IMG/VR virus record: IMGVR_UViG_2896601577_000003
DNA length: 37,046 nt
Source: a virus
Lineage: Duplodnaviria > Heunggongvirae > Uroviricota > Caudoviricetes
Reading direction: 5' to 3' (one strand)
The notes beneath the pieces are model-generated. The model was given only the letters and a program-made list of their open reading frames with translations. It searched no databases and was not told where the DNA came from. The translations under genes were made by a program, and so were the position numbers. Of the stretch, positions 2,060 through 33,167 are shown piece after piece (within the stretch, counting starts at the first letter, position 1; each line of letters begins with the position of its first letter).

Positions 2060-4918
2060 TTATTCTGATGTCACTCTTTGCGAGTGAGCTATTTTTAAAT
2101 CAGCGTTTCCTTCAAATACTACATTCAACTCATAGTTAAGAGTTAGCTTGAATTTTTCTGAGTCACTTTTGATATTCTCTGAAGTGACATTTACTAACTT
2201 ATTATTATCATATTCTCTAATAATTAATTTAGTGAAGTAGTTATCCTTTACCACAAGAGAAAATGGTTGATTAACAAATGGTAAGAAGTAAACCTTACGG
2301 GTACCGGATTCAGTAGTTATGTTCATAGAGCCATCATCATTTTTTCTCATTAGTTCTCTGAGGTTGGGATTATCGAAAAGCATACGATTATATTGCTGAA
2401 AGATCTCTTTACTCATCACAAGAACCAGTTTGCCAGCCAAGTCAGCAGATGATTTTATGTGATCAATCAACATATTGAAATCTTCTATTACGGTATGTTG
2501 CGAACAGCCAGTGCTAAATAAATTTGAAAGTATTATTCTCTGGATGTCCTTGAGAATTAAGTCTGCTTGAATATCACCTTCATTGATATAAGGGATGGAT
2601 TCTATTCCTTCGGCATACGGTTCTTTATCTATCTTAATAGATATCTTATGTTTTGTGAAACAATCGCTAGCCTGCTTAAAATCAATAGATTTGAAAAGTG
2701 AAAGAGGGAGCGTTTTCTTGATGCGTTTACGAAGATGTTCTGATGTTTTACGTGCAGTGCTATCTAGTCGATGTACATCTATGGCAGCATCCTGAAGTCT
2801 CATATCAAGATCTTTCTTTAGCATGTTAATATGCTCTTGAAGCAACTTTCTTAAGTTTTCTTTTTTTGTTTGGAGATCGTCCAATGTTAAAGTCAGCTTG
2901 ATTTTAGTGTATTCGATGGAGTTACAAATTTTTGATAATACTCCAATGAGTCGTTGCTTCTCACGATATGTTATATAGTTGTTTTCTATTGCTTCTTTTA
3001 TTTCTTTTGATACGCTATCGTTCTTGTTAGAAAAAATTAATAATAGCTGAACCCATGATTGTTCCATATCAATAAATCCACAGTCAAAAACATTACTGTA
3101 AACTCTGCCCATCACCATGTCTGTTTTATCATAGTCACGTAAACGCCTTGCTAAACTATTCATCCACCCATTGTGCTCCATATTTTCAGACCATGTCCAC
3201 AGGCAGATTCTAATTAATATCTTGATTAGTTGGCTTGCATTATCAATTTCTTCAGTGGGAGTTTCATATCCACCGGTTTGGTCAATAAGTTTACCCTCTA
3301 AAATAAGTTTAATGTAATGTGTCATTAGTTTGTCAGAAGTATTGATTCTTGATGTCAGATAAAGACATGTGCATATACGCATGTCAGTCAACGCATTTAT
3401 GATGGCAATATTGAACCACTCTCTGTCTGAATTGAAGTTTAGTTTTTTGGATATGAAAAAAACCGGGTTAAAAAGCTGGCCTTTGTAACTGTATTTTTCT
3501 ACCGAATGGCTGTCAATATTCATTGAGTGCTGCCATCGGTTAATAAGATCGACGGCTGTATCAATAGTAGAAGGATCGCGAGTCTGTGTTGCATCAATAA
3601 TCATCGATGGAAGTTCTTGTAGTTGCGTTTTGCAAAATAATTCAAATAAATCTGAATTCTCTGTATTGCAGAAACGAAAGTTTATGCTTTCTTGATATTG
3701 CTCCCAAACAGTGGTATAGGTTCTTAATATACGATTATAACGTGAACGAAGCGAGGCATTTAAGAGTGATTGGTTGTTTCGGAACCATTCTGTCAATATT
3801 GACCATTGTGAACGAGTAATTCCCATATAGATACAAAGTTCATTGCTGATAAGATGTTTTCTATTATTGATAATACGCACTCCGCTCCAAAGACATAATT
3901 CAAAAAATCTTTCAGAAAGATTAATTTTATCCATGGAATTATTTGATATTTTATAAACTTCATCTGAAAACTCATATTGAAAACTCCGTTCAAATAATTC
4001 TGTAGTGATCAGTAAGAAGTTATTGTTGGTATTATCATCTTGAAAAAAATACAAATCGCAGAGATTATTAAAGTTATTAATTAATGCAGAGATAGCATTG
4101 TCAAAACTAATGAGATCAGAATCCCGCAGATACATATACGTATCTGCTGTTATAGCCTGCATTGTAAGACTTACGGAAAAATCTCCTCCTTTAATCGGAG
4201 CCCTATAAAAACATTGCTTAAGTATTTTTATTAATAAGCTGTCTGGTTTGATATTTTTAACGCTAAAAAGTATCTTACCCGTGGATTCTGTTTCTTTTGT
4301 ACGATTATCACCAATGACAAATGACGCAAAATGATTCTTCTTTTTTAGTTGGTAATTAATAAGATTAAGAGTAAGTTGAAAAGGACGGTGATATAAACTT
4401 AACTCATCTTCCTTAGAATAACTGCTAGCCACAGATATGTATTCTCCTTTGTAATCAGCTTGCTTGATTTCTAAATTTGAATAGTTATGTTTTTGATAGA
4501 TAGGGTATAACCTAAGCTTGGCTGAGATTTTGTTACAAATATGGGGCATTACTATTTCGAAGGCAATGTATCGCTTTATAATTATTTGCCGTTTTACATC
4601 ATCAAGAATTTCAAGACTCACGATAAAGAACCAAATAGAAAGAACTATGTTTATCAAAAGCCATAATATGCTGATTAGACAAGCTATACCATAAAGATAA
4701 CTTCCAAAGACAGTTTTAATTAGTACACTGAGAAGTATAAATCCTGATAAGAAAAGCCCGCTGAGTCCAGCAAGCATGAATCCTGAGTAACGCTGATAAG
4801 CAGTTTGGGCTATTTTTCTATCTGCCTTTTTTTGGAATAAGATACTTACTAAACCTATAACAAGGGGTATACAATACCAATAATTGTCAATTGGCCACTT
4901 AAAATGGTTGTTTGCCAT
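2060..4918 (-). CDS. Hypothetical 952-aa membrane-anchored protein, unknown family (cargo gene in AT-rich island)
   Basis: Uninterrupted 2859-nt ORF in visibly AT-rich DNA. The first ~110 aa contain 3-4 hydrophobic helices (CIPLVIGLVSILF; FMLAGLSGLFLSGFILLSVLI; YLYGIACLISILWLLINIVLSIWFFIVSL). The remaining ~840 aa are Lys/Asn/Ile-rich with a coiled-coil-like stretch (…LTLTLDDLQTKKENLRKLLQEHINMLKKDLDMRLQD…). I found no Walker A, PD-(D/E)xK, HEPN or kinase motif by eye. Confidence 0.6.
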   Translation of the reverse strand: MANNHFKWPIDNYWYCIPLVIGLVSILFQKKADRKIAQTAYQRYSGFMLAGLSGLFLSGFILLSVLIKTVFGSYLYGIACLISILWLLINIVLSIWFFIVSLEILDDVKRQIIIKRYIAFEIVMPHICNKISAKLRLYPIYQKHNYSNLEIKQADYKGEYISVASSYSKEDELSLYHRPFQLTLNLINYQLKKKNHFASFVIGDNRTKETESTGKILFSVKNIKPDSLLIKILKQCFYRAPIKGGDFSVSLTMQAITADTYMYLRDSDLISFDNAISALINNFNNLCDLYFFQDDNTNNNFLLITTELFERSFQYEFSDEVYKISNNSMDKINLSERFFELCLWSGVRIINNRKHLISNELCIYMGITRSQWSILTEWFRNNQSLLNASLRSRYNRILRTYTTVWEQYQESINFRFCNTENSDLFELFCKTQLQELPSMIIDATQTRDPSTIDTAVDLINRWQHSMNIDSHSVEKYSYKGQLFNPVFFISKKLNFNSDREWFNIAIINALTDMRICTCLYLTSRINTSDKLMTHYIKLILEGKLIDQTGGYETPTEEIDNASQLIKILIRICLWTWSENMEHNGWMNSLARRLRDYDKTDMVMGRVYSNVFDCGFIDMEQSWVQLLLIFSNKNDSVSKEIKEAIENNYITYREKQRLIGVLSKICNSIEYTKIKLTLTLDDLQTKKENLRKLLQEHINMLKKDLDMRLQDAAIDVHRLDSTARKTSEHLRKRIKKTLPLSLFKSIDFKQASDCFTKHKISIKIDKEPYAEGIESIPYINEGDIQADLILKDIQRIILSNLFSTGCSQHTVIEDFNMLIDHIKSSADLAGKLVLVMSKEIFQQYNRMLFDNPNLRELMRKNDDGSMNITTESGTRKVYFLPFVNQPFSLVVKDNYFTKLIIREYDNNKLVNVTSENIKSDSEKFKLTLNYELNVVFEGNADLKIAHSQRVTSE

Positions 4919-5178
4919 TCGGTTAATGAATGCCTAAACGGGAAATAATGTAAAAGATTATTTTTTATAAATAATTCGTTTAAATATCCAACATAAAGTA
5001 GTACAAATGAAAAAGCTGATATGCAAAGTACTGATTTAACCGGTGAGGATGTTAATCTTATGATGTTTTTTTCAATAAAATTCCATTTTAAATTCGAATA
5101 AAATGGATTTTTAACCATTTTATTACGAACATAGTTCTTTGCTAAAATCTCTGTTGCACTTAAAAATTGTCCAATCAT
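4855..5178 (-). CDS. Small hypothetical membrane ORF (107 aa), either a separate gene or the frame-shifted N-terminus of the 952-aa gene
   Basis: ORF overlaps the 5' end of the large ORF by 64 nt in another frame. Contains a hydrophobic helix (VLCISAFSFVLLYVGYL). Same AT-rich composition. Homopolymers GGGG/AAAA lie in the overlap. Confidence 0.35.
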   Translation of the reverse strand: MIGQFLSATEILAKNYVRNKMVKNPFYSNLKWNFIEKNIIRLTSSPVKSVLCISAFSFVLLYVGYLNELFIKNNLLHYFPFRHSLTEWQTTILSGQLTIIGIVYPLL

Positions 5179-5426
5179 GAATTACTCTTCTATAAAGTGT
5201 GGGTCTACTAACTAAACTGGAACTTTTACTATTGAGTCATATTCCCTTGGACGGGATGGACTGTGAAGATTATACTTGACTTCCTCTGTCATGTGGGAAA
5301 AACATCCGTATTATTGTTAGCATCTGGTTGATGCCCCAACCTCTGACATCTAGTGGGCTGATACATTATCTTTTGTTCTTACTGTCAGTGTAGAAGCACA
5401 TCTCAAAAATAATATTTTTAAGAGAT

Positions 5427-6534
5427 TTATTCTGTTTCTGCTATCCATTCCGGGATTTTTGCTTCAAGTTCAAGCTGCGTGGTAAAGCCGCTGTTATCAA
5501 TGGTGTGCTCGGCTTTTGCAATAATCCAGTCCTGATAATCAATCTCGCTTTTAAAGCCTGTCACTGTGCCATGCATTTCGGGATAGAGTTCTGCACGACC
5601 ACGCGCCAGCGTGATGGAGAATGATGCGGCTCCGCGTTGTAGCTGCTGCCACTTTGCCGCCGCTGCGCGTCTTGCTGCCTGCTCGTTCTGATAAGTCTTG
5701 CGTAACACAAACACGTTGCCTTCCGCACCTTCCATATAGTCGCCTTCCCGACTGCTACTTTTCTCCTTTTTGGGTTTTGGCGGTTTGCGGCGTTTCACGC
5801 TGACTTTTTTCTTTTTCCCGTAATTAAGATCAAGCCAGTAGGCGCGTACCCCCGTATACGCCTCGCGGTCAGCAATGCGGAACTGATGGCGATCGCCGCT
5901 GCTGCGTGTAATGGCGAACGAGGGCAACGGCTGCCCCTGTGCGTTCACGCCACCACCTGGCATGATGAATAACAGATTGCCGCTTTTTACCGTGGCGATT
6001 GCTCCCAGCATTTCCGCCATGCGCGTAAGAAAGGACATGTCGCTTTCTTCGGTCTGGTCGGCGTGGTCGATTTCGATATCCATCAGCATTTCGCTGATTT
6101 GCGGTTTCAGACCGTATCGATGAGCGATGGCGGATACCACACGCTCAACGGTCACATCATGCCAGGACACCTCACGTTTAACGTTAAATTCATCCCGAAA
6201 ATCTGCGCTTCTGGCTGAAACAGTCAGCCTGTCCGGCGGTCCTTCGTGAGCGATTTCATCAACAATGTAAGTGCCTTTTTCTGTCAGCGGTTCCCCTTTC
6301 CAGCCAATGAGAACCGTCAGACGCGGCCCCGTGGCGGTAGCTGCAACTGACCATCCGCATCATCCAGCGTGATGGTGAGCTGGTCCGCCTCAAATCCCCG
6401 GTTGTCGGTCAGTTACAGGCTCATCAGGCGCTCCGCCACGCCTGACAGCGTTTTACCCTCCGAGAGAATATCAAAATCCGGCATTTTCACGGGGGCCGTG
6501 CCCTGACTGAGCAATTGCATGGTGGTGTCGGTCA
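5427..6534 (-). pseudogene. D: P2 gpD-like tail protein; C-terminal 247 codons intact, N-terminal third frame-broken
   Basis: ORF 5427..6170 matches the P2 D C-terminal region as recalled (…ATVKSGNLLFI…ITRSSGDRHQFRIADREAYTGV…REGDYMEGAEGNVF…SGFTTQLELE…). ATG at 6534-6532 gives MTDTTMQLLSQGTAPVKMPDFDILSEGKTLSGVAERLMSL, then an in-frame TAA and frame changes before 6170. Confidence 0.8.
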
Positions 6535-6692
6535 TCTACTCCCTCCCTGTGCGGCATGGTCGCATGTGCGTGCGGAGGGGGTTACTGCTTTTTGTTGTCG
6601 CCGTGGCGGGAGAACGGCGCAGGGGTGAGATTACGCGCGTGGTGGGTGATGATTGTTGCTGAATCATTTAACGGATACAAGGGGCTGAAGCT

Positions 6693-7877
6693 ATGAGTGA
6701 AACTCGTTTTCATGGTGCCCGTGTTACGGAGAATACCGACCTGGTAACAGCGATTAACGATGTTGATTCCAGCGTTATCGGTATCGTGGCAACGGCGGAT
6801 GATGCGGACGCGAAGCTGTTCCCGCTGAACAAGCCCACACTGCTGACCCGCGTCAATGACGTGCTGGGAAAATGCGGGACAACGGGGACGCTTTATCGTG
6901 CGCTTAAGGCCATCGCAGACCAGGTGAGCACAAAGGTGATCGTCGTTCGCGTGGCTGAACACAAAGAAGAAGACGGAAAGACGCAGGATCAACTGGTTAT
7001 CGGTGGTTCTGAGGATGACGGCAGCTATACGGGGATGTATGCGCTGCTTGTTGCAGAGCAGGATGAAAGCATCGGATACCGTCCGCGTATTCTGGCCGCG
7101 CCGGAGCTGGACACGGAGGCGGTAACAAAATCCCTGTGCGTGATTGCAGATAAACTGCGCGCGTTTGTGTATGCCTCATGTCATGGCTGTAACACGATGG
7201 CCGAGGCAATTACCTACCGCCAGAAATTCAACGAACGTGAGGTGATGCTCTTATGGCCGGACTTCATCGCCTACAACCCGAAAAATGGCAAAAACGAAAC
7301 GTTCCCCGCGCCTGCCTATGCGTGCGGCCTTCGTGCGTACATTGACCATGAACAGGGATGGCACAAATCGCTGTCCAACGTTCCGGTTAAAAATGTGCTG
7401 GGGATGTCGAGGCATGTGTTCTGGTCGTTGCAGGCCGAAGACAGCGATGCCAACAGCCTCAACAACAAAGAAATCACGACCATTATTCGTCGCAACGGGG
7501 TCCGCTTCTGGGGTAACCGCACACCGGAAACGAACGCCTACATCTTTGAGGTGTATACCCGAACCGCACAGGTGCTGGCTGATTCAATTGCGGAAGCGCA
7601 GTTTGAAACCATCGACAGTCCACTGACGCCTGCGAATGTGAAGGATGTTATCAGTGCCATCAGGGCAAAACTGGATTCACTGGTGACTGCCGGGAAACTG
7701 ATTGGCGCGGAGTGCTGGTATGACGTGGTGGATAACAGCACCACGGATTTACGTCAGGGACGTGTGCGTATTCGCTACAAATATACGCCCGTTCCGCCAC
7801 TGGAAGACATGGAGCTTTACCAGACGTTTACTGATGAATACTTTGAACCCGCATTTGCGGTGCTGGGAGGTGCCTGA
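6693..7877 (+). CDS. FI: Contractile tail sheath protein (P2 FI-like)
   Basis: 394 aa; motifs …FPLNKP…RILA…LRAF…REVMLLWPDF…EQGWHKSLSNV…RFWGNRT…TRTAQV…YTPVPPLE… match the P2 FI sheath family. AAGGGG RBS upstream. Confidence 0.9.
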   Translation: MSETRFHGARVTENTDLVTAINDVDSSVIGIVATADDADAKLFPLNKPTLLTRVNDVLGKCGTTGTLYRALKAIADQVSTKVIVVRVAEHKEEDGKTQDQLVIGGSEDDGSYTGMYALLVAEQDESIGYRPRILAAPELDTEAVTKSLCVIADKLRAFVYASCHGCNTMAEAITYRQKFNEREVMLLWPDFIAYNPKNGKNETFPAPAYACGLRAYIDHEQGWHKSLSNVPVKNVLGMSRHVFWSLQAEDSDANSLNNKEITTIIRRNGVRFWGNRTPETNAYIFEVYTRTAQVLADSIAEAQFETIDSPLTPANVKDVISAIRAKLDSLVTAGKLIGAECWYDVVDNSTTDLRQGRVRIRYKYTPVPPLEDMELYQTFTDEYFEPAFAVLGGA

Positions 7878-8353
7878 TGGCTGTGCCAAAACATCTTCGC
7901 TTTTTTACGCTGTTTGTGGATGGTGAAAACGAAGTGGGTAATGTGACGTCCGTCACTCTGCCTAAGCTGACGCGCAAAACCGACAGCTACCGGGGTGGTG
8001 GCATGATGGGTGCGGTAAGTATTGATCTCGGTCTGGACGACTCCGCGCTTGATGCGAGCTTTGTCATGGGGGCGCAGTTCGTGAGCTGTTCCTTAAGTAT
8101 GGCGGCACGATTGACGGCACGCTGCTGCGTTTTGCGGGTGAATACTACACCGATGCAGAAAGCGACCTGTATGAAGTCGAAATGCGCGGACGTGTGACGG
8201 AAATTGATATGGGGGAAGCCAAACAGGGCGAAGCCACATCACACACTTACGCCATTAAAACACCTACTACAAGCTGAGTGTTAACGATCGCCCGTTGTGG
8301 GAGATTGACCTGCTGAACTTCATTTACCGGAAGGACGGGGTAATGACTCCAAC

Positions 8354-8731
8354 TTATTGATAGTGTTTTATGTTCAGATAATGCCCGATGACTTTGTCAT
8401 GCAGCTCCACCGATTTTGAGAACGACAGCGACTTCCGTCCCAGCCGTGCCAGGTGCTGCCTCAGATTCAGGTTATGCCGCTCAATTCGCTGCGTATATCG
8501 CTTGCTGATTACGTGCAGCTTTCCCTTCAGGCGGGATTCATACAGTGGCCAGCCATCCGTCATCCATATCACCACGTCAAAGGGTGACAGCAAGCTCATA
8601 AGACGCCCCTGCGTCGCCATAGTGCGTTCACCGAATACGTGCGCAACAACCGTCTTCCGGAGCCTGTCATACGCGTAAAACAGCCAGCGCTGGCGCGATT
8701 TAGCCCCGACGTATCCCCACTGTTCGTCCAT
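8354..8731 (-). CDS. insB: IS1 InsB (expressed as InsAB' by -1 frameshift)
   Basis: 125-aa [43 protein letters not shown]… matches IS1 InsB. Confidence 0.9.
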
Positions 8732-8775
8732 TTCCGCGCAGACGATGACGTCACTGCCCGGCTGTATGCGCGAGG

Positions 8776-9051
8776 TTACCGACTGCGGCCTGAGTTTTTT
8801 AAGTGACGTAAAATCGTGTTGAGGCTAACGCCCATAATGCGTGCAGTTGCCCGGCATCCAACGCCATTCATGGCCATATCAATAATTTTCTGGTGCGTAC
8901 CGGGTTGAGAAGCGGTGTAAGTGAACTGCAGTTGCCATGTTTTACGGCAGTGAGAGCAGAGATAGCGCTGATGTCCGGCAGTGCTTTTGCCGTTACGCAC
9001 CACCCCGTCAGTAGCTGAACAGGAGGGACAGCTGATAGAAACAGAAGCCAC
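8776..9051 (-). CDS. insA: IS1 InsA
   Basis: 91 aa [46 protein letters not shown]… matches IS1 InsA. Confidence 0.9.
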
Positions 9052-9219
9052 TGGAGCACCTCAAAAACACCATCATACACTAAATCAGTAAGTTGGCAGC
9101 ATCACCGAAGGACGGCAAGGACATTGTGCCCGATCGCATCCGTTCCGCGCTTGGGCTTGGCTGATAAGTAATATGCTGGCGGCGCAGTGCGTCGCCTCTG
9201 ACTGAAAAGGAGACAACAG

Positions 9220-23972: not shown

Positions 23973-24773
23973 TTAACCGCGCTTCGCCTTCTGCGTCGCG
24001 GTGGTTTTTCGTGTTGCAGGCTTCCGCGTTGTCTTTTTACTTTTGCTGCTTTCGTCCTGCGCCTGCTGTGCGCTGGCGTCTTCTGGTTCGGCTGCGGAAT
24101 CGGCTTTTTTCAGGGCGCGGGAAAGGGTTGCAATCTCGCGTTTCACACCTGCGTTCGGGTTCAGGTGCATTGCTTCGCGCAGCAGCTTCAGTGACAGGGC
24201 CATGCTGTCCGCATCACTCAGGCCACGGCGGGCAAAGGCGCACGCTTTGCATAATTTGGCGCGCACTTCGTCCGGCATGTCCTGGTCGGTGACAATCTCC
24301 CGGAGGGTGTCCAGTGGTTCGATAAAGGCGGACAAATCCGCGTCGGCATCCGTCCCGGCCTGCGTCAGTACCGGATTACAGATTTCTTCGGTCAGTACCG
24401 TGGCAGCAGTACGGCCAAAGTTATCCGGCATGATGAGGTTGTGACGGACTACATACGCGCCGATACGCAGCGCAAGCGGAAGATCGCCACAGTCAATCGC
24501 CCACACCATCAGCGTGGCAATCACTTCATCCTGCTGCCCGCCGTCAGCCTCCAGCGTTCCCTCAATCCAGCCGGAAAAATCCGGCAACAACTCTTTTTTG
24601 ATGGCGGCTTTCGCGCTTCTGGCCTGTACGCCCTTAAGCCGGGCCTGTGCCAGACGCAGACGATACAGCACCTCTTCATGCGCGGTACGCGCGGCGTGGT
24701 CCACGCCTTCATTCGCCCGGCCTGCGCGCTGTGCCATCACGTTCTGCCAGTGTTGTTGTGCAGGAGTAATCAT
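23973..24773 (-). CDS. M: Terminase small subunit (P2 gpM-like)
   Basis: 266 aa with a basic C-terminal tail; position between N and L. Confidence 0.8.
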   Translation of the reverse strand: MITPAQQHWQNVMAQRAGRANEGVDHAARTAHEEVLYRLRLAQARLKGVQARSAKAAIKKELLPDFSGWIEGTLEADGGQQDEVIATLMVWAIDCGDLPLALRIGAYVVRHNLIMPDNFGRTAATVLTEEICNPVLTQAGTDADADLSAFIEPLDTLREIVTDQDMPDEVRAKLCKACAFARRGLSDADSMALSLKLLREAMHLNPNAGVKREIATLSRALKKADSAAEPEDASAQQAQDESSKSKKTTRKPATRKTTATQKAKRG

Positions 24774-26873: not shown

Positions 26874-28623
26874 ATGATTCAGGACGCTTTTGTGCGCCAG
26901 CGTGCGCGGCAACTTTACTGGCAGGGTTATCCGCCCGCAGAAATATCACGTCTGATGGGAATAAACCCGAACACGATTTATGCGTGGAAAAAACGTGACC
27001 AGTGGGATGAAACGCCACCCGGGCAGCGTGTCACGCAGTCCATCGATGCGCGCCTCATCCAGCTTACTGAAAAACAGAATAAAACAGGCGGTGACTTTAA
27101 GGAAATAGACCTGCTGACCCGGCAGCTTAAAAAGCTGCATGATGGCCAGCCGGATGTGATGGCCGCAGGAAAGAAAGGCCGGGCGAAAAAACTCAAAAAT
27201 CATTTCACGCCGGAACAGATTGCCGCACTGCGGGAAAAAATCATCAGCAGGCTGGAGTGGCATCAGCGGGGCTGGTTTGACTCCCTGACCCTTTGCAGGG
27301 AAGCCGGGATACGTAACAGGATGATCCTGAAATCCCGACAGATTGGGGCGACCTGGTATTTTGCACAGGAAGCACTGCTGATGGCGCTGCGTGACGATGT
27401 GGCGCAACCTTACCAGCGTAACCAGATTTTTTTGTCTGCGTCGCGTCGTCAGGCGTTCCAGTTTAAAAGCATTATTCAGAAGGCGCGGCTGAAGTTGATG
27501 TGGAGCTGAAAGGGGGCGATAAAATCATCCTCTCCAACGGCGCAGAGCTGCATTTTCTCGGCACTTCTGCTGCGTCGGCACAGTCCTATACGGGCAATTT
27601 TTATTTTGATGAATTTTTCTGGGTCAGTCGCTTTGCTGAACTGCGCAAGGTGGCTGGCGCTATGGCAACCCTCAGCGGACTGCGGCGCACCTACTTCTCC
27701 ACGCCATCCACCGAAACGCACGAGGCATACGCCTACTGGAACGGCGACCGCTGGAACGAGAAAAAGGCCTCGCATAAACGCCAGCGTTTTTCTGTGGACT
27801 GGAAAACGCTGCATAACGGGCTTATCTGCCCTGACCGGACGTGGCGGCAAATTGTCACGCTGGAAGATGTGGTTAATCACGGCTGGAAACACACCGATAT
27901 CGACGAAATTCGTGATGAAAACACCGAAGACGAGTTCCTCAATCTCTATATGTGCGAGTTTGTCCGCGAAGGGGAATCGGCATTTAACCTGAATATCCTG
28001 ATTGGCTGCGGCGTTGACGGATACGACGACTGGAAAGACTGGAAACCTTTTGCTCCCCGCCGATGGGGAATCGTCCGGTATGGATTGGGTATGACGCAAA
28101 CGGCAGCAGTGGCAACGGCGACAGCGGCGCTGTGTCCGTGGTGGTTCCTCCGTCTGTTCCTGGTGGCCGTTTTCGAACGGTGGAGACGCGACGCGTTCAG
28201 GGGCTGGAGTTTGAAGAACAGGCCAGAGTCATTGAAGAGTTCACGTGTCGCTACAACGTGGAACACATCGGCATTGATGTGACGGGCGGGAACGGGGAGG
28301 CTGTTTATCAGATAGTGAAACGGTTTTTCCCTGCCGCTATTCCGTACACCTTCACGCTGTCATCAAAACGGTCGCTGGTACTGAAAATGCTGCAAATAAT
28401 GCGTGCCGGGCGGTGGGAATACGATCGCGCCGAACGCGAGCTGGTCGCGGCCTTTAACGCCGTGCGTAAGGTGAAAACACCGGGCGGCTTTATCACTTAC
28501 GAAACGGACCGAGCGAGGGGGATCAGCCACGGCGACCTTGCGTGGGTAACCATGCTTGCTGTCATTAACGAACCGATTGGCGGCGAAGGAGAAAACGAGC
28601 GTTTCACGGTTATGGAGTTCTGA
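26874..28623 (+). CDS. P: Terminase large subunit (P2 gpP-like), split into three overlapping ORFs by two frame breaks
   Basis: ORFs 26874..27509, 27500..28282 and 28063..28623 together give ~583 aa with terminase features. Breaks lie near 27500 and between about 28070 and 28280. Confidence 0.85.
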
Positions 28624-29680
28624 TGAGCAGAAAAAATAAAAAAGTGCGCATGAGTTCACGCATTGATCTCGCTGATGCGCTCAGGAAAGAATCATCGCTC
28701 AGTGCATTCACATTTGATGGTCCTTATCGCCTGACCGGGCATGACCTGCTGGACAATATGTACTGTGCTGATAACGGGCGGTGGTATGAACCCCGGTGGA
28801 CTGGTACGGTCTGGCAAGAGCTGCCCGGCAAACGTCTTGGCATCAGTCTGCGCTTTACTTTAAGCGCAATGTATTGCTCGGTTGCTACATCCCGCACCCG
28901 CTGCTTTCCCGGTAGGATTTCTCGGCGCTGGCGCTGGCGCTGGCGCTGGACTGGTTTGTGTTCGGTAACGCATTCCTTGAGCTTCGAAGCAATATGCTCG
29001 GCGAACCGCTTAAATTACGGCACGCCCTGGCGAAATACATGCGACGCGGAAGCGATCTTGAATCATGGTGGTATGTGCAGGATGGCAAGGATGCGTTTCA
29101 GTTTCGCCCAGGCAAAGTGTGTCACCTGATGAATCCTGACATTAACCAGGAAATCTACGGCATGCCGGAATATCTCGGCGCATTACTCTCGGCCAGCCTG
29201 TCTCATTCGGCGGACATGTTCAGAAAACTGTATTACGACAACGGATCCCACGCCGGGTGCATCATCTACATCGGTGCCGCGCAGGTAAACCGCGAAAGCA
29301 TGGACTCCCTGAAAGAAACGCTACAGGGTGCGCGTGGTGGTGGTGCGTTTAAAAACGTGCTCATTCATGCGCCCAACGGGGGCAAAGAGGGGGTGCAAAT
29401 TTTGCCGTTCCAGCAGATCACCGCAAAGGATGAGTTCATGAATGTTAAGGCGGCATCCCGTGATGATGTGCTGGCTGCGCACCGCGTTCCGCCGCAACTG
29501 ATGGGGGCGATGCCGGGTGAAAAAAGTGCGTTTGGTGATGTGGAGAAGGCCGCGCGGGTTTACGCAATTAACGAGCTGATGCCCGTCATGGAGGCCATGA
29601 AGCACATCAATGACTGGCTTGGCGAAGAGGTGATCCGCTTTAACCCTTACGCACTGTTAGACATCCAGCCCACATCCTGA
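28623..29680 (+). CDS. Q: Portal protein (P2 gpQ-like), split into two overlapping ORFs
   Basis: ORFs 28623..29129 and 28958..29680; start overlaps the P stop (TGATG). Frame break between about 28800 and 28915. Confidence 0.85.
28924..28947 (+). repeat. (GGCGCT)x4 hexanucleotide tandem repeat inside the portal gene
   Basis: Four perfect tandem hexamers, encoding (AL)4 in the downstream portal frame and RWRWRWRW in the upstream ORF frame. Confidence 0.85.
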
Positions 29681-29699
29681 CGCGCTTCGCTTGTCTGCT

Positions 29700-30160
29700 G
29701 CTTCGCCGGGGCATAAAAAATTTATGCCCCGACTCTCCAGCTCCTGTATCAGTCAGATAATTTCACGACGCCTTCCAGTTTATCGCCACCATCGACGGTC
29801 AGACTCTTACGCAATCCCACCGCGTTGACTGCATGTTCTCGCCGCCTCAGTGCGATTTTGACGGCCTTACCTTTCACCCCATCAAATCAGAATCCCTCAC
29901 GTATTTTTCACGCTCAGCGTGAGAAATACGGCCATTCTGTCGTGTCGCTGCGACATCGTTAAGGGAACGCTATTTACCCCCTGAAACGCGGGCTGTTCCC
30001 CGTCACCTGCGCGCAGAAAAAGCGCGTTTTTTTGTGCACGCACGGATCCTTGACGGATCCAGCCGCCACGCGGGCTGGAAGGGCAAAAATTCGTTCAAAA
30101 AAATTGTGCAAATTTGTGCACTATTGTGCAGCAGGGCGATGTGCGATTATCGCCCTAGTT
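29700..30160. other. Non-coding cos-proximal region (packaging site presumed here by synteny)
   Basis: About 470 bp with no convincing ORF, between the portal gene and the early-region cargo. Contains a perfect 10-bp-stem hairpin (29708-29730), a near-palindrome (29904-29926), direct ACGGATCC repeats (30042-30049, 30053-30060) and phased TTGTGCA repeats. I could not match the P2 19-nt cohesive end from memory. Confidence 0.3.
30104..30130. repeat. Three direct TTGTGCA repeats with exact 10-bp phasing
   Basis: TTGTGCA at 30104-30110, 30114-30120 and 30124-30130, followed by a 7-bp-stem hairpin GGGCGAT…ATCGCCC (30134-30155). Confidence 0.7.
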
Positions 30161-30169
30161 TGAGGGGGA

Positions 30170-30760
30170 TCAGGTGTTATTTTTATCTGTCGTCAGTGGG
30201 CTAAACCATCCACAATTTACATCGCATGACTGATGCGTTCTGTCCTCGTGTTTCTCCTGCCACAATGCTTTTCCGCCAGCCTTTATGATGGCTCTTTCAA
30301 CATCCCGCTCGTATCGCAAGGGCTGAAATACGTCATTAATGAAATATTCGCTTATGTCCGGAAGCGATACTGCAAAATTATTTGTTTGTTGCGCCGTCCT
30401 GCTATGCAGCAAAGCGGCATGCTTTAATGCGTCCTGTGCTTTCTGGAATTTAAGTGCATAGTCAGTGGCGATTTTTTCCAGTTCAGCGATTCGGTTGTCT
30501 TTGGTTTCCAGCCAATCAAGTAGCGCCAATACTTCAGGATCCCCGACATCCAACACTGTTACGCGTGATTTTTCATAATGTTCGTCAGCAAGAGTTCGGC
30601 CAATTTTGAAATCTCCATCATCACCATAACCGGAGCAGGCATAAACAACCTGTGCTCCAGATATTCGCTGAATTGACATTTCCTCGCCGCAAATAGGGCA
30701 TTTCGGTACTGGCACAGGTGAATAACGTTCACGTAATGCCTGATAGTTGATTTCGCTCAT
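30170..30760 (-). CDS. Hypothetical 196-aa protein with N-terminal zinc-ribbon-like motif; last gene of the early-strand operon next to cos
   Basis: MSEINYQALRERYSPVPVPKCPICGEEMSIQRISGAQVVYACSGYG… (C-x2-C … C) plus a C-terminal …HQSCDVNCGW. No family recognised. Confidence 0.55.
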   Translation of the reverse strand: MSEINYQALRERYSPVPVPKCPICGEEMSIQRISGAQVVYACSGYGDDGDFKIGRTLADEHYEKSRVTVLDVGDPEVLALLDWLETKDNRIAELEKIATDYALKFQKAQDALKHAALLHSRTAQQTNNFAVSLPDISEYFINDVFQPLRYERDVERAIIKAGGKALWQEKHEDRTHQSCDVNCGWFSPLTTDKNNT

Positions 30761-30823: not shown

Positions 30824-31135
30824 TTATTCAGGAAATAACGCCCGGATATTTCCGGCCATCTGACTGGTTATCTGTGCGGTTGATACTGGCTGTGATGTGG
30901 GGCGTTCTGTCCTGGTTTGTGTCACTGATAACGCTTCATCACCAGCCCATGCAGCCAGTCGATAAGCCTCTGCCGGATTCATTTTCAGAAGTGCCAGCCC
31001 GGCCAGAAAAGCCACGCGTTGGCCGCTTTTGCGGGCTTCTGGTGTAAGGCTGTCCAGCCAGGCGCATGCTTCTCCTTCGTTCTTGACGGCGGTGGGCTTC
31101 AGATAGAAACTTATCCGTCTGGTTGGAGTCGTCAT
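30824..31135 (-). CDS. ParR-like partition adaptor / centromere-binding protein
   Basis: From ATG at 31135: MTTPTRRISFYLKPTAVKNEGEACAWLDSLTPEARKSGQRVAFLAGLALL…IRALFPE resembles plasmid R1 ParR as recalled (…IAFKLNP…LDSIP…ALTAGLALY…LRSLFP). Start lies 4 nt after the parM-like stop with AAGGAG upstream. The ORF-track start at 31270 is an upstream extension. Confidence 0.65.
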   Translation of the reverse strand: MTTPTRRISFYLKPTAVKNEGEACAWLDSLTPEARKSGQRVAFLAGLALLKMNPAEAYRLAAWAGDEALSVTQTRTERPTSQPVSTAQITSQMAGNIRALFPE

Positions 31136-31139
31136 TGGT

Positions 31140-31745
31140 TTACTCCTTGTCCATTGCGTACAGCCCATTAACCAGAGCAAACTGTGGCACCCCGTCCGCG
31201 ATGAAAGTCGCATTAACTCCGCAGGCTTCGCGGATAGCGGGTGCCACAATCTCCGCCCCTCCACCGACAACCATCACCCGCCCGTAACCCGAAAAACCCG
31301 CCAGCGCGCGGATCACGCGTTGTTTCAGTGTTTCTTCCTTTTCACGAATTACCGCCATAAGGCTGGCGTAATGCGCGTCATTGTGGATGTGCTGGCGCAG
31401 CCAGGCTTCATCATGGCGATGTTCGATAATGGTATTGGCGATGTGGTGACTGGTGCGCATACCGTTAGTGGCCATCACCGACAGTACGGCATCGGCCATC
31501 AGAGAAACGCCCACGTGTGGATCGCAAAACACCTGGCTGATACCTGCCAGTTGCCCCTGAACCTTTGCCACATCCAGCGTGGTTCCGCCCAAATCCACAA
31601 TCAGCAGGGATTCAAACGGACTCATGTCAGCCAGTGCCTTAAAGCCAGCCGGAATGGATTCAGGCATAACCCGTACGTTACGGATAGTGAATGCTTCGCC
31701 GTTCTGGTACTCCACCGGGCGCATGACGTTCGCTTTTTTGCGGTT
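31140..31745 (-). pseudogene. ParM/StbA-like actin-fold ATPase, C-terminal ~200 codons only (5' end removed at the IS911 junction)
   Basis: …SLLIVDLGGTTLDVAKVQGQLAGISQVFCDPHVGVSLMADAV… and …GYGRVMVVGGGAEIVAPAI…VNGLYAM match the ParM phosphate-2 and C-terminal motifs. The first 5 codons of ORF 31140..31760 are encoded by the IS911 terminal repeat. Confidence 0.7.
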
Positions 31746-32902
<1,157 letters not shown>

Positions 32903-33167
32903 AACCGAAGAACACGGCGGTGCGGAGTCCGGAGAGTAACGGAATAGCAGAGAGCTTCGTGAAAACGATAAAGCGTGACTACATCAGTATCATGCCCAAA
33001 CCAGACGGGTTAACGGCAGCAAAGAACCTTGCAGAGGCGTTCGAGCATTATAACGAATGGCATCCGCATAGTGCGCTGGGTTATCGCTCGCCACGGGAAT
33101 ATCTGCGGCAGCGGGCTTGTAATGGGTTAAGTGATAACAGATGTCTGGAAATATAGGGGCAAATCCA
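32903..33167 (+). mobile_element. IS2 3'-terminal fragment (about 265 bp) abutting IS911
   Basis: Identical in content to 1464-1728 of the complete IS2 (InsD C-terminus …[28 protein letters not shown]… and right end GGGGCAAATCCA at 33167). Confidence 0.85.

Follow-up and report, generated by a model that had tools for sequence, protein, structure and literature searches.

The non-coding region beside the portal gene of a P88-like prophage

The virus record IMGVR_UViG_2896601577_000003 (37,046 nucleotides, referred to here in its entirety as the window) holds a P88-like prophage (Xuanwuvirus, Peduoviridae). In phage P88 the genes for the terminase large subunit and the portal protein are followed by ~450 bp in which no gene is credible, and then by variable cargo, parR, parM and the replication gene A. 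The portal gene of the window, a homologue of P2 Q, stops at 29680, and a sequence-only reading had described the DNA beyond it (29700–30160) as a structured region of hairpins, palindromes and phased TTGTGCA repeats that might be either a cos (cohesive-end packaging) site bound by the terminase small subunit or a partition site bound by a ParR-like protein. The nature of these repeats and of the DNA around them is the subject of this report. From 29600 to 30130 the window is 92–98% identical to phages P88, 520873, Chuche, Shae_phiSM and P88_4B11, and similarity to all five ends at ~30130.

All of the motifs listed in the sequence-only reading were found, to within 1–4 nt. The hairpin past the portal stop codon is perfect, its arms (29707–29717 and 29721–29731, forward strand) forming a stem of 11 bp rather than the 10 bp described, 26 nt from the stop; as RNA it folds with −17.7 kcal/mol (z −4.2). 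What had been called a 23-bp near-palindrome proved to be a 31-bp palindrome (29900–29930) with 15-nt arms at 29900–29914 and 29916–29930 and a single mismatch; it lacks a T tail on both strands, and its RNA fold reaches −19.4 kcal/mol (z −7.1). Further along, a GC stem (GCGCGC/GCGCGT) followed by seven T residues (30009–30033, forward strand) fits the pattern of a terminator, with a stability not above that of shuffled sequences (z −1.4). Two ACGGATCC direct repeats, starting at 30042 and 30053 and thus 11 bp apart, occupy 30042–30060 on the forward strand together with two GATC sites. Pairs of 8-mers as close as this occur about five times per Markov shuffle of the window (observed were ~10 separate loci, comprising 18 overlapping pairs), so that the ACGGATCC pair alone is not beyond chance. 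The hairpin past the TTGTGCA repeats has an 8-bp stem (arms 30133–30140 and 30149–30156) and lies 3′ of a cargo gene on the reverse strand, where it folds with −14 kcal/mol (z −3.6).

Among these motifs, only the phased TTGTGCA triple is clearly non-random. Its units start at 30104, 30114 and 30124, all on the forward strand and at an exact 10-bp spacing, and TTGTGCA is the only 7-mer of the window to occur three times in 10/11-bp register (0 in 200 Markov shuffles). A fourth copy, which had been missed, lies at 30032–30038, 72 bp upstream of the triple and overlapping the run of seven T residues; the window contains eight copies, four of them inside 99 bp. We refer to the proximal copy as R0 and to the units of the triple as R1–R3.

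A conserved block shared by phages and satellites

The distantly related Enterobacter phage phiT5282H (Novemvirus; portal 68% identity) shares with the window only a block of ~140 bp, which ends exactly past the third TTGTGCA of the triple; the sequences flanking the block in such phages are unrelated. The block is present at 92–99% identity in 1149 of 5426 complete E. coli genomes (21%) and is unannotated in nearly all of the records listed for E. coli. Pattern scans also detected it in Kluyvera, Erwinia, Pantoea, Mixta, Enterobacter, Izhakiella, Kosakonia, Salmonella and Thiolinea, and in more than 200 viral or metagenomic contigs.

A set of 263 loci fell into three contexts. In P88-like phages the block lies 426 nt past the portal stop, and in phages resembling phiT5282H (phiT-like) it lies ~370–380 nt past it. 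The third class has no portal gene, and here the block has an ogr/Delta-like gene on one side and, on the other, genes for an integrase and an alpha-type primase. These loci are P4-like satellites (E. coli DLI.6n, locus L010, and 19 others), which carry the whole block without a portal or terminase gene. The sequence to the left of the block in the window (ATTTACCCCCTGAAACGCG, 29971–29989) is common to P88-like phages and the E. coli satellites, whereas phiT-like phages have a different left flank, which is also found in the satellites of Kluyvera, Erwinia and Izhakiella; the left flank of a satellite is therefore that of its presumed helper type. Because the block is non-coding and is copied by satellites that need the capsids and terminase of a helper, it resembles a packaging signal. 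P2 and P4 are the precedent for a packaging signal shared by helper and satellite (PMC9122126).

An alignment of 19 diverse representatives resolved the block into four conserved sub-blocks with variable spacers between them. The first, B1 (29990–30015), reads GGGCTGTTCCCCCGTCACCTGCGCGC, minus one C in the window, and includes a 19-mer that is near-invariant across all lineages; its form in the relatives is GGTGACGGGGGAACAGCCC, one G longer than the 5′-GGTGACGGGGAACAGCCC found on the reverse strand of the window at 29990–30007. B2 (30027–30038; TTTTT(T/C)GTGCA) contains R0 (30032–30038, forward strand), and the motif TTTT(T/C)GTGCA was invariant among the 19 representatives but for the T/C position. 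B3 (30058–30090) consists of a GC-rich dyad (TCCAGCC-N8-GGCTGGA, 30058–30079) followed by GGAAGGGCA(A/T)AAA. Dyad symmetry is held at this place in the relatives by differing sequences: CCAGTACTGG in satellites, CCAGCGCTGG in the E. coli prophage L011, CGCCAGCTCTGGCG in phage 186 and CCGCGCC-N6-GGCGCGG in P4. B4 (30095–30130) is made up of TCAAAAAAA and the three repeats. Here the A-tract CAAAAAAA (30096–30103, forward strand), which is conserved among the relatives and is an inverted match of TTTTTTTG at 30027–30034, directly precedes R1–R3 (30104–30130), and similarity to every relative stops directly past R3.

The motifs therefore do not make up the one structured array that had been described: the conserved unit is only ~29971–30130, and the ACGGATCC pair, the hairpin at 29707 and the palindrome at 29900 are specific to the P88 lineage. 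The 29707 hairpin is nearly invariant among 71 unique P88-like sequences, and the palindrome is absent from the phiT-like and satellite versions. The ACGGATCC pair sits in a variable spacer and is likewise not kept in those versions; nor is the stem at 30009, although its T run is. GATCC, which contains a Dam GATC site, occurs in the 30042–30060 spacer twice in P88-like, once in phiT-like and three times in L155-type sequences, and in none of the satellites.

Because the first scans had been ascertained on the array itself, the search was rerun with the B1 pattern alone, which returned 56 unique sequences. Three units in strict 10-bp register were present in all of them except the five most divergent, in which the units drift from the consensus, and the R0 motif was changed in only one (L173). 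Within the units the TGTGC core was retained and substitutions were concentrated at positions 7–10. Such retention of core and register is the pattern that would be expected of phased protein-binding sites on duplex DNA.

Collinearity with the cohesive ends of P2, 186 and P4

P2, 186 and P4 have 5′ cohesive ends of 19 nt, and P2 and P4 share a core of ~55 bp (Ziermann & Calendar 1990, as relayed in PMC9122126 and PMC9594776). For comparison, the genome ends of these three elements were joined and read from portal to hotspot, with offsets counted from the end of the 19-mer. All three show the same order: GCGCGC(A/G), the 19-nt cohesive end, a GC hairpin then TTTT, AATGCA, an interval of ~60 bp (holding a GC dyad in 186 and P4) and three (A)TGCA units. 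The TGCA offsets are 25, 97, 107 and 119 in P2; 25, (31), 97, 107 and 116/120 in 186; and 25, (31), 97, 107 and 120 in P4. Those of prophage L011 are 25, (34), 97, 107 and 117, and those of phiT5282H, the E. coli satellite and the window are 27, 99, 109 and 119. The equivalent of R0 in P2, 186 and P4 is TTTTAATGCA at +25, and the equivalents of R1–R3 are ATGCAA, ATGCAC and (A)TGCA at +97, +107 and +116–120. The flavours of the units match in both families, the first being TGCAA and the second TGCAC.

The 19-mers correspond as well. Compared with the P2 cohesive end GGCGAGGCGGGGAAAGCAC, the consensus of the relatives is identical at 13 of 19 positions and the satellite and L011 versions at 14 of 19, in the same orientation relative to Q. 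L011 (from E. coli 23CRST028) bridges the two types, having TTGTGCA repeats but CTTGCTCCCCCGCCTCGCC as its 19-mer. Over positions −26 to +32 it matches P2 without gaps at 41 of 58 positions, a score attained by none of 20000 shuffles (P2 and P4 match at 53 of 58); phiT, satellite and window sequences match P2 at 25–28 of 58, which at most 79 of 20000 shuffles equalled. When an nhmmer profile of TTGTGCA-type blocks, with the L011 type left out, was run against 186, P4 and P2, the top match in each was the known cos in the same register. P4 and phiT-like elements share the 13-mer TCAGACCGCGCCG in the dyad. Finally, the block follows the portal gene and comes before the variable region ahead of gpA, as does cos in P2. 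Alignment with the cos regions of P2 and 186 thus finds the block collinear with both, repeat positions included, and with P4 likewise.

Since the block is conserved in phages and satellites and is collinear with the cohesive ends of P2, 186 and P4, we consider it likely that ~29971–30130 is the cos site of the P88-like prophage. The homologue of the cohesive end, and hence the candidate cosN, would lie at 29990–30007 (±2 nt), and the four TTGTGCA units appear to be positional homologues of the TGCA units of P2, 186 and P4.

A model for recognition by terminase

In cos phages such as lambda, where gpNu1 binds R1–R3, and HK97, it is the small terminase subunit that reads the repeats adjoining the nick site. 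The TTGTGCA repeats most likely serve terminase as recognition elements, and by analogy their reader is probably the small subunit gpM, whose homologue is encoded at 23973–24773 on the reverse strand of the window (Pfam PF05944, 6e-37). The earlier proposal of a cos site with small-subunit binding therefore stands as regards cos, by conservation across genera and satellites and by collinearity with P2, 186 and P4; the binding of the small subunit we only infer. The repeat type co-varies with the terminase clade: gpM proteins are 48–57% identical within the TTGTGCA group and 32–36% identical to those of P2 and 186, and gpM of the window is 54–57% identical to that of phiT5282H and 34–36% identical to those of P2 and 186.

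Read on the reverse strand from hotspot to portal, the block presents three TGCACAA units in 10-bp register, a T/A tract, the GC-rich dyad, a single TGCACAAAAAAA unit, ~20 nt (a GC hairpin in the P88 lineage) and then the G-rich 19-mer GGTGACGGGG[G]AACAGCCC. According to the model, terminase would recognize the TGCA-containing repeats, with gpM the likely reader, and the proximal unit and the distal triple would be brought together over the 61-bp spacer. The large subunit would make staggered nicks in or at the 19-mer, at positions that are presumed here, thereby generating cohesive ends. The array might serve initiation, in the manner of lambda cosB, or termination, in the manner of cosQ. The same terminase would package satellites with a copy of the block, and the sharp end of homology past the third repeat would mark the start of the cos-proximal cargo hotspot.

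Evidence against the assignment and alternative explanations

Several observations weigh against this assignment. Cos has been placed in P88-like phages by sequence comparison, and the E-values of the nhmmer matches are weak (0.029, 0.32 and 1.6 for 186, P4 and P2, respectively). The linear record of P88_4B11 (NC_049391), which is the only published placement and the only linear record to break inside the block, has its break at 30085|30086, within the GC dyad rather than at the 19-mer. Contig ends in viral and metagenome collections are enriched within 140 nt of the array (6/90), at inconsistent bases. As to the identity of the reader, the co-variation of repeat type with terminase fails to separate gpM from gpP or the portal protein. 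Finally, the copy of cos in the window may no longer function, because one base of a C5/G5 run, invariant elsewhere, is missing from its 19-mer and because the prophage is defective.

Some of the evidence on the position of the ends was set aside. The authors of the P88_4B11 record set nucleotide 1 'relative to reference genomes' (PMC6969025), and P2-like records of the same study begin at the true P2 cos; the P88_4B11 start is therefore probably a guess, and it was rejected as evidence of an end. The contig ends are not usable for end mapping because their bases are inconsistent. The GC dyad (30058–30090) was also considered as the nick site, on the grounds of its composition and of GGGCGGAAAGGG, which resembles the P2 19-mer in the opposite orientation, and was dropped once alignments anchored on L011 and on P2 revealed collinearity with the 19-mer at 29990–30007. 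A further idea, that the 19-mer would go with the large subunit and the repeats with the small one, was tried on L011 with its P2-like 19-mer and TTGTGCA repeats; it proved not to be discriminating, because the large subunit (TerL) of L011 is no closer to P2.

Alternatively, the block may be cos while a factor different from gpM reads the TTGTGCA units, for which a phage regulator, an architectural protein of the host and the large subunit of terminase are candidates. The units are flanked by A/T tracts, which suggest bent DNA, as host factors use at lambda cosB, and the repeat type tracks the whole terminase and portal clade rather than gpM alone. Against this, the background from lambda gpNu1 and HK97 would lead one to expect the small subunit to read repeats beside the nick site, inspection of the block by eye found no consensus for IHF, CRP or Ogr (TGT-N12-ACA), and the satellites encode no phage regulator consistently, yet retain the units. 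We regard a reader other than gpM as unlikely.

It is improbable that the region does no more than hold clustered terminators where the portal operon (forward) converges on the gpA–parMR–cargo operon (reverse), in which case the repeats would serve as a reverse-strand terminator (GTGCA-CAAATT-TGCAC then T7). A pattern scan does find candidate terminators at 30009–30027 (forward) and 30121–30106 (reverse), each with a T run behind it; the 29707 and 30133 hairpins are significantly stable, although without a T tail, and the former is the positional counterpart of the annotated terminators tQ of P2 and tW of 186. These two hairpins are probably terminators. However, the array (z −0.4 as RNA) and the 30009 stem fold no better than shuffled sequences, and the stem is lost in phiT-like and satellite versions while the T run and GTGCA stay. 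Satellites with different flanking transcription retain the block, and a 5-nt core in strict 10-bp register fits the binding of protein to duplex DNA, not an RNA stem. An Rfam scan of 29500–30400 returned nothing relevant.

The partition function raised by the sequence-only reading fared worse. On this view the phased TTGTGCA repeats would act as a centromere of the parC type for partition of the prophage in a plasmid state, and the ParR-like protein, whose gene lies 700 bp away, would bind them. A ParM/ParR pair does lie downstream in P88-like phages, phased direct repeats are typical of parC, and in the cargo-free relatives L079 and L102 the parR stop is ~86 nt from the array. The neighbouring parR-like gene of the window is real (~30825–31136, reverse strand; Pfam Plasmid_stab_B, 94% identity to P88 ParR), but an Ead/Ea22-like cargo gene stands between it and the repeats, so that the array lies downstream of parR, beyond the cargo, and not upstream of parM overlapping its promoter. 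An identical array is present in phiT5282H, whose genome holds parMR nowhere. More generally, parMR was found at none of 69 phiT-like and none of 20 satellite loci, among them 34 phiT-like and 13 satellite loci whose downstream sequence spans 5 kb or more, and 15 P88-like loci with at least 5 kb downstream also lack it; P2, 186 and P4 are without parMR, yet have TGCA repeats at the same offsets. P88 moreover offers a better parC candidate in two 18-bp palindromes (ACGGGA-N5-GAATCCCG) directly upstream of parM. Taken with the distribution of parMR, this makes a ParR centromere very improbable. The two palindromes (L001 5610–5705) are 56 bp apart, one of them inside the end of gene A, and are a candidate parC or operator of the phage ParMR system; a deletion has removed this region, and with it the motif, from the window.

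That the repeats are replication-origin iterons is hardly credible, because, although phased direct repeats beside an A/T-rich tract resemble origins and the replication gene gpA is nearby in intact relatives, the array is shared by phages and satellites with unrelated replication proteins (a gpA-type nickase and an alpha-type primase, respectively), the ori and crr repeats of P4 are annotated elsewhere and differ in sequence, and the P2 origin lies inside gene A.

Neighbouring genes, the state of this prophage and related satellites

Beyond R3 the window enters a cos-proximal variable hotspot, a concept described previously (PMC9122126). Its cargo here is the Ead/Ea22-like gene (30170–30760, reverse strand; Pfam PF13935, 2e-32), which P88_4B11 also carries. 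Other cargos carry their own hairpin at the position equivalent to 30133, and we take the 30133 hairpin to be part of the variable cargo, not of cos, and probably the terminator of the cargo gene. On the portal side, a subset of P88-like loci (L042, L047, L049 and others) has a ~635-bp insertion directly past the portal gene, before the position equivalent to 29677; it encodes a 174-aa open reading frame (ORF) on the opposite strand and constitutes a second small cargo site.

Past the parR-like gene, only the 3′ part of parM remains (31143–31745, reverse strand), truncated by an IS3-family element (~31746–33167) with ORFs for an rve integrase core and HTH_Tnp_1. The element stands in place of P88 coordinates 2888–9209 (6.3 kb), which hold gene A and the 5′ part of parM. 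Because the replaced segment includes gene A, the prophage is incapable of its own replication, and it is defective. The portal gene (28623–29680, forward strand) is a pseudogene with 97% identity to the P88 portal gene; its ORFs are split, and relative to P88 it has lost 1 nt, contains an in-frame TAG and carries 12 bp (GCGCTGGCGCTG) duplicated in tandem. Across 26874–29680 both the terminase large-subunit and portal genes are broken compared with P88, with 1-nt losses in homopolymer runs. These lesions reflect either a decaying prophage or homopolymer sequencing errors, and the homopolymer deletions of the window could be sequencing errors.

The satellites with a P88/phiT-type cos form a family that includes L010 3139–10598 (E. 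coli DLI.6n, adjoining hpt/can), L012, L013, L017, L019/L021, L023, L027 and L138. Every member encodes an integrase and an alpha-type primase, carries an ogr/Delta-like gene and has a major capsid gene of its own, which belongs to the P2 gpN family and has an N-terminal extension of ~118 aa; with respect to delta and int, cos is inverted compared with P4. L019/L021 (contig QAKE01000006.1, 12.7 kb, labelled as a Bacillota metagenome-assembled genome and probably mis-binned) is a complete satellite genome with a terminal overlap of ~500 nt; at its start a Nextera adapter remnant is fused inside the cos 19-mer (…TACACATCT|CTGTCCCCCCGTCACC). In Thiolinea disciformis (L024/L141), P2-type TTTTAAAATGCACC and P88-type TTTTTTGTGCAC occur in tandem, followed by the TTGTGCA triple, beside a gpN-like capsid gene; this divergent block extends the architecture beyond Enterobacterales.

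Discussion

The paper reporting the P88 genome does not mention cos, and none of the papers mentioning Xuanwuvirus is about packaging or cos, judging by their titles and abstracts. The block at ~29971–30130 is a previously unannotated addition to the known P2-family cos sites. What is modestly new is the fixed geometry of TGCA-core repeats common to P2, 186, P4, the P88/phiT group and their satellites. P88-like prophages are present in about one-fifth of complete E. coli genomes, and their packaging site is almost never annotated and is undescribed in the literature searched. Placing cos here also sets the true boundary of the defence and cargo hotspot, directly past the third repeat, and the 160-bp cassette is a testable candidate for the construction of cosmids or transducing particles with P88-type helpers.

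A broader proposal, which we put forward tentatively and judge to fall a little short of probable, is that TGCA repeats in fixed geometry (~+25; ~+97, +107, +117) may be a universal terminase-recognition module of Peduoviridae. The flavour of the repeats (ATGCA in P2, 186 and P4; TTGTGCA in P88-like and phiT-like phages) would set packaging specificity and decide which satellites are mobilized, and would thereby define a second helper–satellite group that includes the capsid-encoding P4-like satellites. The placement of cos predicts a second packaging-specificity group with its own satellites, and the common geometry provides a testable model for cos recognition by P2-family terminases, which is far less understood than that of lambda.

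Three known systems invite comparison. The parC sites of type II (ParMR) partition systems, such as that of plasmid R1, also consist of short direct repeats in helical register close to parR; in contrast, the array described here is conserved with the terminase clade and not with ParR. Lambda cos (cosQ–cosN–cosB) is comparable in design, in that a nick site has repeats for the small subunit on one side with intrinsically bent or bendable DNA between. It has no sequence similarity to the block, and the spacing and number of its sites (the gpNu1 sites R3, R2 and R1 and the IHF site I1) differ. In addition, the repeats described here are on what we take to be the right-end side of a mature P2-type chromosome, whereas lambda cosB lies on the end that is packaged first.

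The cos sites of P2, 186 and P4 are the closest counterparts. Their cohesive ends are experimentally defined, whereas those of the P88 type have been placed by sequence comparison. The 19-mers differ at 5–6 of 19 positions, and the repeat unit is TTGTGCA in strict 10-bp register here and (A)ATGCA with spacings of 10 and 9–13 bp in P2, 186 and P4; unlike in those elements, an A7 tract precedes the triple. Since the terminase subunits of the two types of phage are only 34% (gpM) and 45% (gpP) identical, the packaging specificity is probably distinct. The two kinds of site are nevertheless alike in their place in the genome, in a homologous G-rich 19-mer, in one TGCA unit at +25/27 and three at +97–120 with a GC dyad between them (in 186 and P4), and in being shared by helpers and satellites. 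The adjoining GC hairpin with its T run is also common to both, the GC stem and T7 at 30009–30033 being the counterpart of the GC hairpin and T4 that separate the cohesive end from the first TGCA of P2, 186 and P4.

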